Shown here one piece after another: positions 33,001-39,000 of a stretch of 64,000 bases of DNA (the first letter of the stretch is position 1; the number at the start of each line of letters is the position of its first letter). Origin of the DNA: Candidatus Cloacimonadales bacterium (GTDB lineage: Bacteria; Cloacimonadota; Cloacimonadia; Cloacimonadales; JAIOQZ01); NCBI GenBank assembly GCA_963662655.2, contig CAXXTU010000002.1:2016001-2080000 (forward strand). The letters are read 5' to 3'. Position numbers: made by a program.

Positions 33001-36000
33001 CCACGTCTCACATCATGTATAACTACGGCGATTCTCTCTCCTACGGCTACATTCAGGAGCCGGTGGAGGAAAAGCTCAGGATGATAACCGGTGAGGTAGA
33101 GAACACGCTCGATGCAGCCCTTTTGAGCGCCGGACTAGAAGCGGCCGTCAAGCAGGCGGTGAACAACACGCTGGAAGCCTCGATCAGCTTTCAGACAGAT
33201 ACCCGCAAGGGCGACGTATTCCACGTACTGCTTAAAGAACGCTATTTTCATGGCGAAAAACTGCCTCGGGCCAAGCTGGTCTACGCCTCCTACAAGGGCA
33301 AGGTTGCAGGATTCAAGGAGGCCTTCCGTTACAATGACGACGATGTCTCTTCCGCGCTGAACGGCATGTTCAGTCCCGAGGGAAAAGCGCTTGTTCACAA
33401 CGCCGTGCGCACCCCGCTCGATTACATGCACGTGACCTCGCCTTTCGGAAAAAGAATCCACCCGATCTCCCGCAAGTGGAAGATGCATCTGGGCATGGAC
33501 CTCAGGGCCAGAGTAGGAACCCCGGTCTATGCCGTTGCGGCGGGAAAAGTAACCAGCGCAGGGCCGAACGGCGGTAATGGCAAGGAAGTCCGGATCAAGC
33601 ACAACGACATGCTCACGCACTACGCCCATCTGAGCAAGGTATATGTCAGAAAGGGCCAGGTCGTCAAGAAGGGCACGAAGATCGGTCTTACGGGCAATAC
33701 CGGTTATTCGGCGGCTCCACACCTTCATTTCGGTTTGCAGAAGAACGGGAAGTGGATCAACCCGAAGAATCTCCGCATGGTCGGGGCGCAGAAGCTCAGC
33801 GGAGACAAGCTTGACCGTTTCAAGGGACAAATGGCGATTATTAAGCAGGATGTTTCCCGCCTCTCCCCTGCGGATGAGAATGTCTTCCCGCTGTAATTAA
33901 TTCCAGAAATATAACATTTAGCCTTTTGTATCAAGAAAAAATTTAATGTGACGATATAACAGTTTCCACGAAAAAGAGATCGTGCTTGTATGCGATATCG
34001 CTCTGAAAAAAAGTCTATTTTTCAGTAACACCCTGAGCGTTTTTCTGTTATATTATTGCTGTATGATCGAATACAATTTCCGTTATGAGAGATTATAACT
34101 TGGGAAAATAGAGGGCGGAAATTGTTATTAGAGAGGATTTTCCGATTGAGATATCCAATGACTAAATGACATCTCATTCGGAAAACCGTACAATTACTTT
34201 CAAGGAGGTACTTATGATTGTTTTGTCAGATTATTCAATAGCTCCTAAACCCAGTACAAACCCGAACCTCCCAAAAGAAAAAGGAAAAAAAGAGCCTGCA
34301 AAAAAAGATTCTGGAAACTCGAAAGAAAAAAACGAGAAGAAGTAAAAACTGCAGTTGCCATTTATATGAAAGGCGATCGATATCGGTCGCCTTTTTCTTT
34401 TGTTTTTTTATCTTGTCACATGCCGTTCGATCCCCTCTCTAATGGGATCGTCAATTATAAATCTCTGAAATCGTTTTCGTATATCGCCCTCAACCCTTGA
34501 CAATTTTCGGAATAAAAAATCAATGACCCTATCGCCGAGCTCAGCCCACCTAAACGGTAATGATCCGCACGGTACTGAGCCGATAGGGTAACTCGGGAAA
34601 CCGGATTGCCTCCCTTTTGGAAAGGCGAGAGCTTATCTCGTACTCCAAAGCAATTTTTTTTTTGGAGGAAATAATGAATAACACTGTATTTCATCTTGAA
34701 GTACCCCAGAATGAACCGATTCTCTCGTACGCTCCCGGCACATCCGAGAGAAAGCTTCTGAAAACTGAACTCGAGCGCCAGGAATCCACGCAGATCGAAA
34801 TTCCTCTGATTATCGGAGGCAAAGAGGTTCGAACCGGCAACACCGACAACGTCGTCATGCCATGCGATCACAAACACGTTCTTGCGACCTACCACAAGGC
34901 CGGTGAGGCCGAGATCAAGCTGGCTATCGAGTCGGCCCTTAAAGCGAAGAAGGACTGGGAAAACCTCTCGTGGGTGGAAAGGGCCTCCATCCAGTTGAGG
35001 GCGGCAAACCTGCTCTCTACCAAATATCGCTGGCTGATCAATGCATCGACCATGCTCGGGCAGGGCAAGAACCCATTCCAGGCCGAAATCGATTCCGCAT
35101 GCGAAACCATCGATTTCCTGCGCTACAACGCCTACTTCGCATCCCAGATTTACTCGAACCAGCCCAAATCGGGCTTCGACCAGCTCAACCGTCTCGAGTA
35201 TCGCCCCTTGGAAGGATTCATCCTGACCGTTACGCCGTTCAACTTCACGGCAATCGCCTCAAACCTCAACATGTCCGTCGCGCTTATGGGAAACACAACG
35301 GTCTGGAAACCGGCGACGACCGCGCTCCTCTCCAACTACTATCTCATGAAGGTATACCAGGAAGCCGGAATGCCGGATGGCGTTATCAACTTCATACCGG
35401 GCAGCGGCGCGCTGATCGGAAACGTCTCTCTCTCCGATCCAAGCGTCTCGGGCGTCCACTTTACAGGCTCAAACAACACCTTCAACCACATCTGGAAAAC
35501 CGTTTCCAAAAACCTGAGTTCCCTGCATTCCTACCCTCGCCTCGTTGGCGAAACCGGCGGCAAGGACTTCATCTTCGTCCACAATTCGTCCGATCCGGCG
35601 CAAGTCGCAACCGCCATCGTGCGAGGATCTTTCGAGTACCAGGGACAGAAGTGCTCCGCTGCCTCCCGCGGATACATCCCCCGCTCGATGTGGAAGGAAG
35701 TTCGCGGTCTGCTTGAGTCCATGATCGGCGAGATCAAGATGGGCGACGTCCGTGACTTCAGCAACTTCGTCAACGCCGTCATAGACGAGAAAGCCTTCGA
35801 CAGCATCATGGGCTACATCGATAAAGCCAAGAATGCGGACGACGCGGAAGTCATCATCGGCGGAAACGGCGACAAGTCGGAAGGTTACTACATCGAGCCG
35901 ACCATCATCCTCACCGAAAATCCCAACTTCGTCACCATGGAAGAAGAAATCTTCGGCCCCGTCATGACCATCTACGTCTACGACGACGAGAAGTTCGAGG

Positions 36001-39000
36001 AAACGCTGGACATCTGCGACAAGACGTCCCCGTACGCTCTCACCGGCGCGGTTTTCTCCAACGATCGCTACGCCTTCGTGAAAGCATGTCAGAAACTCCG
36101 ATACGCCGCCGGCAACTTCTACATCAACGACAAGCCGACCGGCGCAATCGTAGGGCTCCAACCCTTCGGCGGATCTCGAGCCTCCGGTACAAACGACAAG
36201 GCCGGCGGACCGCTCAACCTCATGCGCTGGGTCAGCCCACGCACCATCAAGGAAACCTACAACCCGCCTACCCATTTCAGGTACCCATTCCTGGAATCGG
36301 AATAAATCGCTTTCTCGCTCCAACGCCCGACATCAGTCGGGCGTTTCCTTTTTTCGCGCAGCACTTCCAGTTCGCGAGCAGATTGGTTCGATCCTCTCTT
36401 CAACGTGGTGTTCCACAGCGTAGCTTTTTTTCAACACTCCTTTCGGAGCTGTGGTATATCCACGTTGAAGAGAGGATCGGGCGAAGATGCCGCGAACGTC
36501 CCACGCTTGCTTACATCCAGGATACAACGTGAAAAGAGCCGCAGAATAATGATTCCGGCGGCTCTCGGTGCATTGGGATTTCCTGACAATACTACTTCAT
36601 GAGTAGCGCTTTCCTGATTTTTGTGCTTTCGTCTGTCTGAAGCTTGAAAAAATACACACCGCTCGAAACCGCTGATCCACTCTCGTTCGTACCATTCCAC
36701 GTCACCTGATGCGTTCCCGCAGGCATTACGGCATCGATCAGATTCACGACCCTCTGCCCTCTGATATTATAAACCGCGAGCTTCACATTACCCTGTTTTA
36801 TAGTGAATGAGACTGTCGTGGATGGATTGAACGGATTGGGGTAGATCATTATTTCAGTTGAAACAGGAACGATATCCTCTTCGTCTTCGCTCATGTTGCT
36901 GTTGGCTGCACCCGGAGTACCATAATTCATACTCGAAGCCTGCCAGCTTTCAGCGAGCGCGTTGTCGCTCTCGGGATCCATCAGTTCAAGAGTCGGGCCA
37001 TTGCCATCCGGCTCTGTCGGCCAGGGAGATTCGTCATCGTATTCGACAGAATCGATCAGATTTTCGTTCGTGTCGTACAATCGAAGAAGTTCGCCACCTC
37101 CGCTCAATCCGAAACCGACATCTCCCACATAATTGCTCACCCCGGGGAAATACTGCATGAACAGTTCTTCGCTCTCACACAATACGAGATATGCGTTCGC
37201 GTCAAGAATCGTGCCGTCGGGAATCTGGAATGCATGGCTGTCGTCCTCATCCTTGAATACCCAGCCCGAAAGGTTTACCGATTCAGAGCCGGGATTGTAT
37301 AACTCGATCCAGTCCTCGGTATCGTGGTCGTCCGGCGAATTGTAATTGATCTCGTTGATCACGACATCGCCTGTTTCGCCTTCCACATCGATCGTTTCGA
37401 ACTCGTACTGTGCTCTTGCCGGAAAAAAGGCCCCCTGATTCGCATTCTCAGCATAGATATAGTAGTCAATATCGCAATACCCGGCTGTTAAAAACGTTCC
37501 ATACACGCCGTCCCCGGATGCGCCGTCATCGTGTGCTCCATCATCGTACATTGCCACCTCGGTGAACGGGTCGGACGCGTTACCGCGGTACCCGAGAGAA
37601 ACGTTCAAGGCATCGTCCACCTCGACGGTAATCGTAATCTGCTCGTCGGGAGATGCGGAAGCCGGATCAGTTGCAACATTCGCGATCTCGGGTACCGTCC
37701 CCTGGAATGCTGATGAACCAAGAAGGTAATCGACGCGTACATCCATCAATTGCACAATCCCGACAATAGCTCCACCACCGCCGCCGCCGCCGCTATATAC
37801 AGTTGAATTTACATTCGCCTGGAAATTGGCAAACGAGTAGAAGAAATTGGGGTCGTTCTGCACATCGTTCTCAATCATGTCCTGAAGCTCGTTTGCCCGT
37901 GTTTCGTACCAGCCGTTCTCGAACACTTCTTCGATCATCGTTCTCATGTGGGCAATATATCTTCTTTTATATGTATTGTTGCTCAGGACATTGCCGATGA
38001 TCGGATAGTATGAGCTGTTGATATTATGCAGCGGGTCGAGGTGCTGCAATTCCGTGGTACTCTGCTCGTCGTAGGGCAGGAACCGCGTGAAACCGCCGAA
38101 CGCCATATTCATGTCCCACAGGATGGGATTGAAATGATCGGATGCATCCTGAAACAGGTAGTAGTTGTGACCGAAATTGATGGGACTGTCCAAATGCACC
38201 AGAAGATTGGAGAACGCGAGAAACCACAGATGGTTATCGATATTTAACACATCCTCAATATAGTCTGTGTCGTTGTTGAACACGTTGAGGAAGTTGATCA
38301 GCTCGTCCCAGCCGGTATCCGATTCCAACTCGTAATGATCGTAGTACGATGTTGAATCCGCGCCCTCGTATCCCCAGATCGGGAACATGCTGTTCGGGCC
38401 GTCGCTCACTTCCCCTTTGAAACGAGCTTTCTCACTTGTGTTGAAGTGGCTACTCATGAAATACTTGTCCACATCCTGACAACTCGTGTAGATACCGATC
38501 AGCTCGCCATTGACATAAACATTGGCGTAATTCGCCAGACCGGCCGGCATGTAGTTGCGAGCAATCTCGTAAGCGAGCGTCTCACGCACCAGCGAAGGAT
38601 CGTGAAAGCCGTTAGCCAGCTTGATCGTGCCGTAGTTGTCGATCAATTGATCGTCGATCACATAGTCGAGCTTGATGTTAAACGGGTTTTTTTCACGGTT
38701 TGGCGAGTAAGAGCTATTCCCCTTATATCGAACGCCAACGCTGTCGTATTGTACACCGTTGATCACGACTGTCCCCAGGAGGCGATCCTCACCGACTGCG
38801 TAAAGCTGGTCGAGAATCTGATCCCAGTTGTCTTGCTCGAATGTAAGCTCGATCTCGTTTATCTGCTCAATATCGTAAAAATCCTGCGCTGAAATCTGAA
38901 ACAGGGTTATCATCATTATTACTAGAAAAGTCCACTTCATTTATCCTCCCGTGCATGGCCTCTTTATACCCAGCACGTTATTAGTGACATACCCTTACAG

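Follow-up and report, generated by a model that had tools for sequence, protein, structure and literature searches.

The only Moco/Tuco riboswitch of the genome under study (G000, a Candidatus Cloacimonadales bacterium) directly precedes the gene of an NAD-linked L-glutamate gamma-semialdehyde (P5C) dehydrogenase (P5CDH), and this arrangement recurs among its relatives. We consider it fairly probable that the RNA serves as a back-up switch of the metE/metH type, in which WOR-X, a clade of tungsten enzymes, would act as the glutamate-semialdehyde oxidoreductase that P5CDH replaces. The comparison covered 61 Cloacimonadales genomes (G000 and 60 relatives), the relatives having 77 aptamer loci, and coordinates are positions in the window, that is, the whole stretch of 64,000 nt that was analysed.

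The riboswitch and the gene behind it

The aptamer (34521..34643, plus strand) matches the full RF01055 model (1-135) with 66.4 bits against a gathering threshold of 36, and both Rfam and a lineage-specific nhmmer profile find a single match in G000. The P1/P2/P4/P5 layout was seen in the cmscan alignment and in folding with P1 enforced: P1 pairs 34532-34536 with 34624-34628, P4 carries a GAAA tetraloop (GNRA type), and P3 is absent, the columns of its hairpin being gapped in the alignment. This agrees with the genome-wide survey's note, which had reported the genome's single Moco-family riboswitch, without P3, 30 nt before the P5CDH gene. The missing P3 suggests tungsten rather than molybdenum as the metal of the ligand; G000 also has two genes of the xanthine dehydrogenase family. 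Upstream, a candidate -35 box read from the sequence (TTGACA, 34497..34502, plus strand) would have transcription begin close to the 5' strand of P1. It is not in the promoter scan's list of the window, and TTGAC lies at a similar distance from the aptamer in G032, G037, G050 and G054.

The P5CDH gene (34674..36305, plus strand, 543 aa) starts with ATG at 34674, 30 nt after the aptamer match, and has a Shine-Dalgarno (SD) sequence GGAGG at 34664-34668. Its product passes the equivalog TIGR01236 (group 1) with 767 bits over residues 12-539 (cut-off 613.6 bits, E 9.7e-231) and contains GETGGKD and YQGQKCSA, which we take to be the catalytic motifs; by annotation, it would oxidise glutamate semialdehyde with NAD. 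Sources of this substrate in G000 are RocD and a proline-dehydrogenase-like operon, and no PutA-type proline dehydrogenase domain was found in the genome. The unit of riboswitch and P5CDH is monocistronic, with the next gene on the opposite strand. An intrinsic-terminator-like hairpin (34368..34395, plus strand, 12 pairs, T tail) separates it from an upstream 43-aa ORF and would close the upstream transcript and so insulate the unit, and another (36322..36345, plus strand, 10 pairs, 7 G-C) follows the gene, though the terminator scan count of 5 is not above that of shuffles (mean 3.4). For the 43-aa ORF, no match was found elsewhere in G000 or at the loci of six relatives, some with short upstream flanks.

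Folding predicts a ligand-free helix (34616..34649, plus strand; pairs 34616-34621/34644-34649 and 34625-34630/34636-34641) that ties up the anti-SD by means of the 3' strand of P1, leaving the ribosome site exposed; both of its arms are kept in G001-G003 and G042. In the predicted ligand-bound state, the anti-SD (34643-34649) pairs with 34661-34667 in an SD-sequestering hairpin (34643..34668, plus strand). Opening of the SD is computed to cost 7.7 kcal/mol with P1 formed and 4.6 without it, and the difference of +3.1 kcal/mol was matched by none of 150 linker shuffles of the G000 leader, which points to an expression platform coupled to P1.

By the same kind of calculation, all 18 P5CDH leaders are predicted to be translational OFF switches, 14 with ddG above +0.5 kcal/mol and four in which P1 contains the SD, an arrangement known from E. 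coli moaA; a cofactor riboswitch would thus repress a cofactor-free enzyme in every one of them. Predicted OFF are also the leaders of L-piperideine-6-carboxylate dehydrogenase (P6CDH, 2/2), of tungstate transporters (4/4) and of uptake-type or unassigned genes (43/46). On the other hand, four of the five AOR/WOR leaders are predicted to be ON (-2.3 to -7.3) and one is neutral; three hydA-linked loci are left out of this count. The ALDH-P5CDH leader of G109, which has a terminator-like hairpin, is ON by the translational test (-6.4), and the two aptamer-bearing WOR-X operons, both outside the 35 Cloacimonadales loci scanned, score neutral (G011 -0.3, G110 -0.4).

Distribution of the switch and its candidate tungsten partner

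The aptamer is paired with P5CDH in 18 of the 61 genomes, belonging to five families (f1, f3, f4, f6, f10), and at 17 of the relatives' 77 loci the first gene after the aptamer is a P5CDH orthologue (57-80% identity). Two more lead into a second ALDH, which is P6CDH according to NF050084 (above cut-off). The survey had seen the pairing in three families and the second NAD-ALDH in two genomes, so that the former claim is widened and the latter enzyme has gained a name. In G110, which is outside Cloacimonadales, the order is aptamer-P6CDH-P5CDH with the SD in P1.

P5CDH carries the switch in 17 of 23 genomes that also have AFOR_C versus 1 of 18 that lack it, although the genomes are not independent (nine of the latter 18 are a single family). 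Another 17 of the 61 genomes combine AFOR_C with a lack of P5CDH; RocD is present in every one of these, and neither TIGR01237 nor NF050084 was found in any of them. Absence of P5CDH need not imply a substitute, because RocD could run towards proline synthesis. Three genomes, 68-83% complete, have neither P5CDH nor AFOR_C. Aligned sequences confirm WOR-X for 21 of the 23 genomes with both and for 15 of the 17 without P5CDH. There are counter-cases: five genomes with a split-type WOR-X like that of G000 (G013, G017, G023, G024 and G029; G033 is set apart) have P5CDH without the aptamer, and G002, 90% complete, has the switch while no AFOR was found. In G054 (99% complete), where neither AFOR_N nor AFOR_C was found, the P5CDH platform is kept and the aptamer core has decayed, and its neighbour G037 bears the switch. 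In G038, which has MoeA and MoaC, P5CDH has been deleted except for its two ends, and the aptamer is still in place.

MoeA is absent from G000 and 56 of the 60 relatives, and MoeA and MoaC are both missing in most of these genomes, which the survey had overlooked, so the cofactor is probably imported. Its supply would therefore vary, and a back-up would pay. P5CDH is absent from all four MoeA-positive relatives, but loss of P5CDH where the cofactor can be made does not extend to Bacteroidota, in which 37 of 41 genomes with WOR-X keep P5CDH and 40 of 41 have MoeA; no aptamer was found within 1.5 kb of 30 Bacteroidota P5CDH genes. The uptake operon of the relatives includes a lipoprotein and a TonB receptor that G000 lacks; G000 holds a remnant of this operon without aptamer, and no degenerate aptamer was found before its WOR-X or uptake genes.

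WOR-X of G000 is split over three subunits (AFOR_N-NuoE / NuoF / FeS-AFOR_C), with AFOR_N and AFOR_C on two genes (Pfam E 2e-47 and 3e-88). Both the cysteines for FeS binding and the active-site stretches with Glu and His are present, and the motifs match those of the unsplit form and align to AOR and FOR. Sequence comparison puts WOR-X no nearer to FOR (E 2e-44) than to AOR (E 2e-51), while an H-x-E-A-W stretch is common to WOR-X and FOR. At least 591 relatives were confirmed in GTDB. Among 80 WOR-X loci from GTDB, P5CDH is in the flank of 10 and P6CDH of 6 (either one in 14, all Bacteroidota), RocD adjoins WOR-X in one (L212), and a four-gene flavin/FeS operon lies directly upstream in four. 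The DAO subunit of this operon (L203) has as best match 1y56_B (E 1e-91), presumably the Pyrococcus proline dehydrogenase. P6CDH comes after the WOR-X operon in G000, G001 and G003, and no aptamer was found at WOR-X operons in 35 Cloacimonadales loci scanned. Distribution and neighbourhood link WOR-X to P5CDH as a candidate partner that may carry out the same reaction. The survey had placed a tungsten/molybdenum aldehyde oxidoreductase opposite the dehydrogenase; in place of a generic AOR, the partner is likely this one uncharacterised WOR clade.

Under the back-up switch, the aptamer would bind a cofactor of metal and pyranopterin, the metal most probably being tungsten, and binding would hold P1, free the anti-SD and let the SD hairpin block P5CDH translation. 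As long as cofactor is available, the glutamate semialdehyde that arises from ornithine (via RocD) or proline would be oxidised by WOR-X, which, with its NuoEF/Bfu-type module, may pass low-potential electrons to ferredoxin; when the cofactor runs out, the switch would open and P5CDH would take over. Four independent lines support the survey's idea of an isozyme switch: the predicted polarities of P5CDH and AOR leaders are opposite, the switch on P5CDH goes with AFOR genes in the tabulated genomes, the link has decayed or disappeared in genomes without one of the partners (G054, G038), and the same WOR clade lies beside semialdehyde-pathway genes in other phyla.

Competing explanations and consequences

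A much less probable explanation is that repression by the cofactor serves redox balance: with pterin enzymes running, the NADH-producing step would be lowered, and WOR-X would act on other aldehydes, its substrate being so far predicted. Downstream of P5CDH, G051, G010 and G110 carry genes of an NADH-linked hydrogenase or of NuoEF, and three aptamers lead into hydA. However, one of these hydA cases is a P5CDH deletion remnant (none was found before hydA in G012 and G028), and redox balance leaves unexplained both the 17 RocD-positive AFOR genomes without P5CDH and the location of WOR-X beside P5CDH, P6CDH, RocD and proline-dehydrogenase-like genes in other phyla.

It is unlikely that the aptamer senses the molybdenum cofactor, or pyranopterins in general, with a Mo hydroxylase of the xanthine dehydrogenase family as partner instead of WOR-X. 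G000, G002 and G009 have two to three MoCoBD_1 genes each (five genomes searched), G002 combining them with the switch while no AFOR was found there, and P3 absence as a sign of tungsten is a correlation (PMC2408646). Nevertheless, the aptamer tracks AFOR_C, which 39 of 44 aptamer genomes have, only 1 of 40 AFOR genomes being without aptamer, and some relatives' aptamers precede the tungstate binders WtpA/TupA. Even less probable is a variant aptamer for another ligand tied to proline or ornithine catabolism: aptamers of f6 and G016 have CUGAAG/CUUAAG for CCGAG and those of f3 have CCUUCC/UGAAAAGG, but crude motif counts gave no change common to all P5CDH-linked aptamers, and that of G000 keeps CCGAG, CUAA, CCGAUAGGG, GAAA, CCUCCC and UGGAAAGG like uptake-linked ones. 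That the aptamer is a mere leftover of a deleted cofactor operon, as orphaned aptamers before hydA in G012 and G028 might suggest, is hardly credible, since 18 genomes retain it, in several P5CDH clades (from a quick tree) and with at least three platform designs, all predicted OFF, and decays where AFOR is gone (G054).

If the back-up switch is real, it would be the first isozyme-type regulon of a Moco/Tuco riboswitch and would assign a definite substrate to a clade of tungsten enzymes that has so far gone without characterisation. To our knowledge, the ligand of this riboswitch has not been directly demonstrated so far, and the natural ON and OFF leaders form pairs usable for testing it. Tungsten-cofactor supply by other microbes would then set the energy gain of amino-acid-fermenting Cloacimonadota from proline and arginine. 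More tentatively, with chances somewhat short of even, Cloacimonadales may be tungstopterin auxotrophs fed by neighbours, using one riboswitch class with opposite polarities for uptake, tungsten enzymes and cofactor-free back-ups; the widespread WOR-X clade may be an energy-conserving glutamate/aminoadipate-semialdehyde oxidoreductase of anaerobic proline, arginine and lysine breakdown, and the microbes of digesters and sediments may share tungstopterin as a vitamin.

Comparison with known systems

Our literature search for a link between the Moco/Tuco riboswitch and P5CDH found nothing relevant. The aptamer shares its core, the lack of P3 and control by SD sequestration with the known P3-less type (Regulski et al., 2008, PMC2408646; Eubacterium limosum Tuco regulon, PMC11725836), and relatives of G000 place it on Tup/Wtp transporters and AOR, as known. 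The targets reported for it comprise genes of cofactor synthesis and metal transport, pterin enzymes, iron transporters and FocA (PMC2408646; PMC11725836), and a survey of regulons gives for MOCO synthesis and transport only, plus miscellaneous (PMC3766115), whereas in G000 it precedes a catabolic dehydrogenase that works without such a cofactor. For two sulfite-oxidase genes, repression in the presence of an alternative Tuco pathway was only speculated on (PMC2408646). The metE-type cobalamin riboswitch ('isozymes of B12-dependent enzymes', PMC3766115) likewise lets a cofactor-sensing RNA shut a cofactor-free route in cofactor salvagers; the cofactor and aptamer differ, and the isozyme pair of G000 is a candidate.

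As for the enzyme, tungsten oxidoreductases that act on a defined metabolic aldehyde in place of NAD-linked dehydrogenases have been described, namely GAPOR/GOR for GAPDH (PMC13328260) and Pyrococcus FOR, proposed to oxidise glutaric semialdehyde (PMC12096430). WOR-X differs from them as a separate group with glutamate (and aminoadipate) semialdehyde as proposed substrate and with RNA control. According to the former paper, only 5 of 92 clades of the family have a defined role, and the taxa that we searched for, in order to place WOR-X, gave no match in the supplements covered. The electron-bifurcating WorABCSL of Acetomicrobium mobile and E. limosum (PDB 9mqx; PMC9304861, where the word 'split' does not occur) shares with WOR-X the NuoE-, NuoF- and NuoG-like modules and the WOR catalytic unit. 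In G000, by contrast, two genes encode the halves of the catalytic subunit, both of them as fusions with a Bfu subunit, the operon has no separate WorS, and bifurcation is putative.

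The P5CDH unit and the predicted polarity of its leader

The only Rfam match within the window is a Moco/Tuco riboswitch aptamer (RF01055; 34521-34643, plus strand), which covers the full model with 66.4 bits (cut-off 36) and leaves the P3 columns of the alignment empty. The ATG (34674) of a 543-aa ORF for L-glutamate gamma-semialdehyde (P5C) dehydrogenase (P5CDH), ending at 36305 on the same strand, lies 30 bases past it, and the product passes the TIGR01236 (group-1) equivalog cut-off with 767 bits. These results bear out the genome-wide survey's note, which placed a P3-less aptamer 30 nt 5' of this gene, and a genome-wide search agreed with it that RF01055 occurs once in the source genome, G000 (3.8 Mb, 99% complete). 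Terminator-like hairpins bracket the unit. A 43-codon lysine-rich ORF (34214-34345, plus strand) has a good SD and a terminator of its own, as well as a promoter-like sequence at 34166-34194; it matched no family, nor anything in the loci of six relatives. Two neighbours are unrelated, an M23 peptidase (32655-33896, plus strand) and a secreted protein of 782 aa whose tail is T9SS-like (36592-38940, minus strand).

Polarity was computed by folding each leader and subtracting the energy needed to open the SD in the free ensemble from that needed when P1 is enforced. In the computed bound fold of the window leader, 34643-34649 pairs with the SD, while in the free fold the P1 3' strand and its neighbours capture this anti-SD. 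The difference was +3.1 kcal/mol versus -0.1 +/- 1.0 in linker shuffles, 0 of 150 of which reached it, and both arms of the alternative pairing are conserved in four relatives (G001-G003 and G042). All 18 P5CDH leaders were predicted OFF (SD blocked with cofactor bound), 14 by the energy measure and four because the SD is the P1 3' strand. With three hydA-linked loci excluded from the count, leaders of L-piperideine-6-carboxylate dehydrogenase (P6CDH; 2/2), tungstate transporters (4/4) and uptake-type genes (43/46) were also predicted OFF, classical AOR leaders ON (4/4; -2.3 to -7.3), and one leader of WOR-X, an uncharacterised clade of AFOR-family tungsten oxidoreductases, neutral (G011; -0.3). 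The opposite sign on AOR and P5CDH leaders is an internal control among predicted folds, and this modelling makes OFF polarity of the switch highly probable.

Distribution among Cloacimonadales

Among 61 genomes of the order, 44 carry RF01055, with 78 matches altogether. All 77 relatives' loci were taken in, with up to 6 kb downstream of each; the first gene encodes P5CDH in 17, AOR/WOR in five, WtpA/TupA in four, [FeFe]-hydrogenase in three and P6CDH (NF050084 above cut-off) in two, the other 46 being uptake-type or unassigned. Including G000, the pairing with P5CDH extends to 18 genomes of five families, wider than the three families noted before; the observation is real, conserved and better supported than it was. 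Switch-bearing P5CDHs are scattered over several clades of a quick tree, though the pairings are not all independent, since G042 P5CDH clusters with G000's genus. The aptamer also precedes an NADH-dependent [FeFe]-hydrogenase gene in G012, G028 and G038 (L093, L099, L105) and in G051 (L104), where P5CDH sits in between. Aptamers of G016, G022, G047, G051 and G110 form a sub-type, with CUGAAG replacing CCGAG and the SD within P1.

P5CDH occurs in 41 of the 61 genomes and AFOR_C, a domain of the tungsten enzymes, in 40. In the 23 with both, the switch stands on P5CDH in 17, is absent in five and is cut by a contig end in one; of 18 with P5CDH only, it does so in one (G002, 90% complete), though these counts ignore kinship, nine of the 18 being one family. 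All 17 genomes with AFOR_C only have ornithine aminotransferase (RocD; 57/61 overall); none has P6CDH (7/61 overall) or the other stand-alone P5CDH type (0/61), PutA lying outside the search in relatives. The three with neither are each 68-83% complete. G054 lacks an AFOR gene and has a decayed aptamer core before an intact platform and P5CDH; in G038, which is able to make cofactor, a deletion has removed P5CDH except for its two ends and spared the aptamer. These two natural experiments fit the isozyme-switch idea. In G048 and G059, both without AFOR, P5CDH adjoins P6CDH with no aptamer (L247, L252).

The tungsten enzyme and cofactor supply

The survey's note had proposed a tungsten/molybdenum aldehyde oxidoreductase as partner of the switch. 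G000 does have one AFOR-family tungsten enzyme, but it belongs to the WOR-X group, distant from AOR, instead of being a generic AOR. It is divided among AFOR_N-NuoE, NuoF and FeS-AFOR_C genes (C2:1187031-1192184; L108:7032-12188), its halves fused to Bfu-type subunits around nuoF, and is followed by thiF, a thiS-like ORF (Pfam test done in G001) and P6CDH. The halves are 46-58% identical to the unsplit 710-aa enzyme that most relatives have with a small ferredoxin subunit. The split form occurs in 12 of the 61 genomes and in many metagenome proteins (74-89% identity). WOR-X is far from all solved WORs (E 2e-51 to AOR, 2e-44 to FOR); its FeS and active-site stretches are retained, and it has H-x-E-A-W in common with FOR.

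G000 gave no MoeA, MoaC or MoaA-level hit and no match to the relatives' TupA/WtpA. MoeA was found in four and MoaC in five of the 61 genomes, versus the 40 with AFOR_C, and all four MoeA-positive genomes lack P5CDH. Most of these bacteria thus probably salvage the cofactor from outside, a supply for which a back-up enzyme would be of use. The most frequent aptamer target is an uptake-like operon of a 270-aa lipoprotein, an ECF S component, an Oxidored_molyb-like protein, two ATPases, CbiQ and a TonB receptor. The predicted lipoprotein model (pLDDT 92.7) matched PruR, which binds pterin (Foldseek probability 1.00, E 0.01-0.03), and, in its best ten rows, the sulfite-oxidase cofactor domain (Z 6.2-10.5, rmsd ~3, ~105 residues). 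This riboswitch-led orphan with a PruR/sulfite-oxidase pterin-binding fold (L035:464-1273 and 27 relatives) is, on its modelled structure, a candidate cofactor-capture protein. G000 has a shortened operon (C2:512339-516132) without lipoprotein, receptor or aptamer. Gene content does not fix the metal, since G012 and G028, which lack AFOR, retain the operon and have a DMSO-reductase-family enzyme, and G000 has two XDH-family genes.

Other phyla, proposed mechanism and known systems

At least 591 WOR-X relatives were confirmed in GTDB, and 80 loci were kept. P5CDH lies in the flank of ten (one a 32-residue piece only), P6CDH of six and either of 14, all Bacteroidota with varied arrangements. RocD adjoins WOR-X in L212, an ornithine-cyclodeaminase-family gene lies two genes upstream in L192, and a four-gene FeS/flavin operon leads into it in L203, L210, L211 and L219; the L203 DAO subunit best matched 1y56_B, which we take to be Pyrococcus proline dehydrogenase (E 1e-91 versus 1e-51 for sarcosine oxidases). 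A Pro_dh-like gene lies ~5 kb upstream in five loci, with unrelated genes between (Pfam on L223). The orders aptamer-P6CDH-P5CDH (G110, SD within P1) and aptamer-ALDH-P5CDH (G109) also occur; the polarity of the G109 leader is ambiguous, ON by the energy measure (-6.4) yet with a terminator-like hairpin. Among 50 of 65 WOR-X genomes outside Cloacimonadota, 48 have MoeA, 40 P5CDH and 13 RF01055; in Bacteroidota 37 of 41 keep P5CDH despite MoeA in 40, which counts against a general rule.

Other observations concern the same neighbourhoods. A 93-aa Ppnp-family (PF06865) gene stands beside WOR-X in 16 of the 80 and in four Cloacimonadales loci (e.g. L179:8208-8489, L149:7976-8254), and DUF364 is divergent from it in nine. 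Downstream of WOR-X in four Bacteroidota loci (L180, L182, L183, L232), the slot that moeA/moaA/moaC or wtpABC occupy in other Bacteroidota is filled by an HTH gene, three genes of unknown function and a TonB receptor, possibly another cofactor or tungstate uptake set. In Bacteroidota G065, G091 and G062 (L314, L315, L316), P3-less aptamers whose P5 is extended stand before a ~245-aa gene whose weak match is MamO-like, possibly of the TauE type.

With cofactor bound, P1 would hold, the SD hairpin would form and P5CDH would be off, and WOR-X would oxidise the semialdehyde supplied by RocD or a proline-dehydrogenase-like operon (C2:3254972-3257859). When cofactor is scarce, the alternative helix would free the SD and NAD-linked P5CDH would carry the flux. 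WORs produce reduced ferredoxin, and for WOR-X the gain would likewise be reduced ferredoxin in place of NADH. We lean towards this cofactor-gated swap of P5CDH for WOR-X on the semialdehyde. The parts are known and the regulatory use is new, and an unstudied tungsten enzyme gains a substrate proposal open to test.

No report of a Moco/Tuco switch-P5CDH link was found in literature outside subscription papers and RegPrecise. In the accessible parts of PMC2408646, 'dehydrogenase' is not in the main text nor 'pyrroline' or COG1012 in the supplement; those of PMC13328260, whose large datasets possibly lie beyond them, lack 'proline', 'semialdehyde', 'ornithine' and 'riboswitch'. The papers as far as accessible likewise hold no description of split Bfu-fused WOR subunits; there, the enzymes nearest to WOR-X include FOR (PMC12096430) and WorABCSL (PMC9304861). 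According to the same partial sources, Moco/Tuco riboswitches act on synthesis, transport and pterin enzymes, with loss of P3 correlating with tungsten (PMC2408646), Tuco switches stand on WOR1, Tup, iron transporters and FocA (PMC11725836), and an isozyme category exists for B12 alone (PMC3766115).
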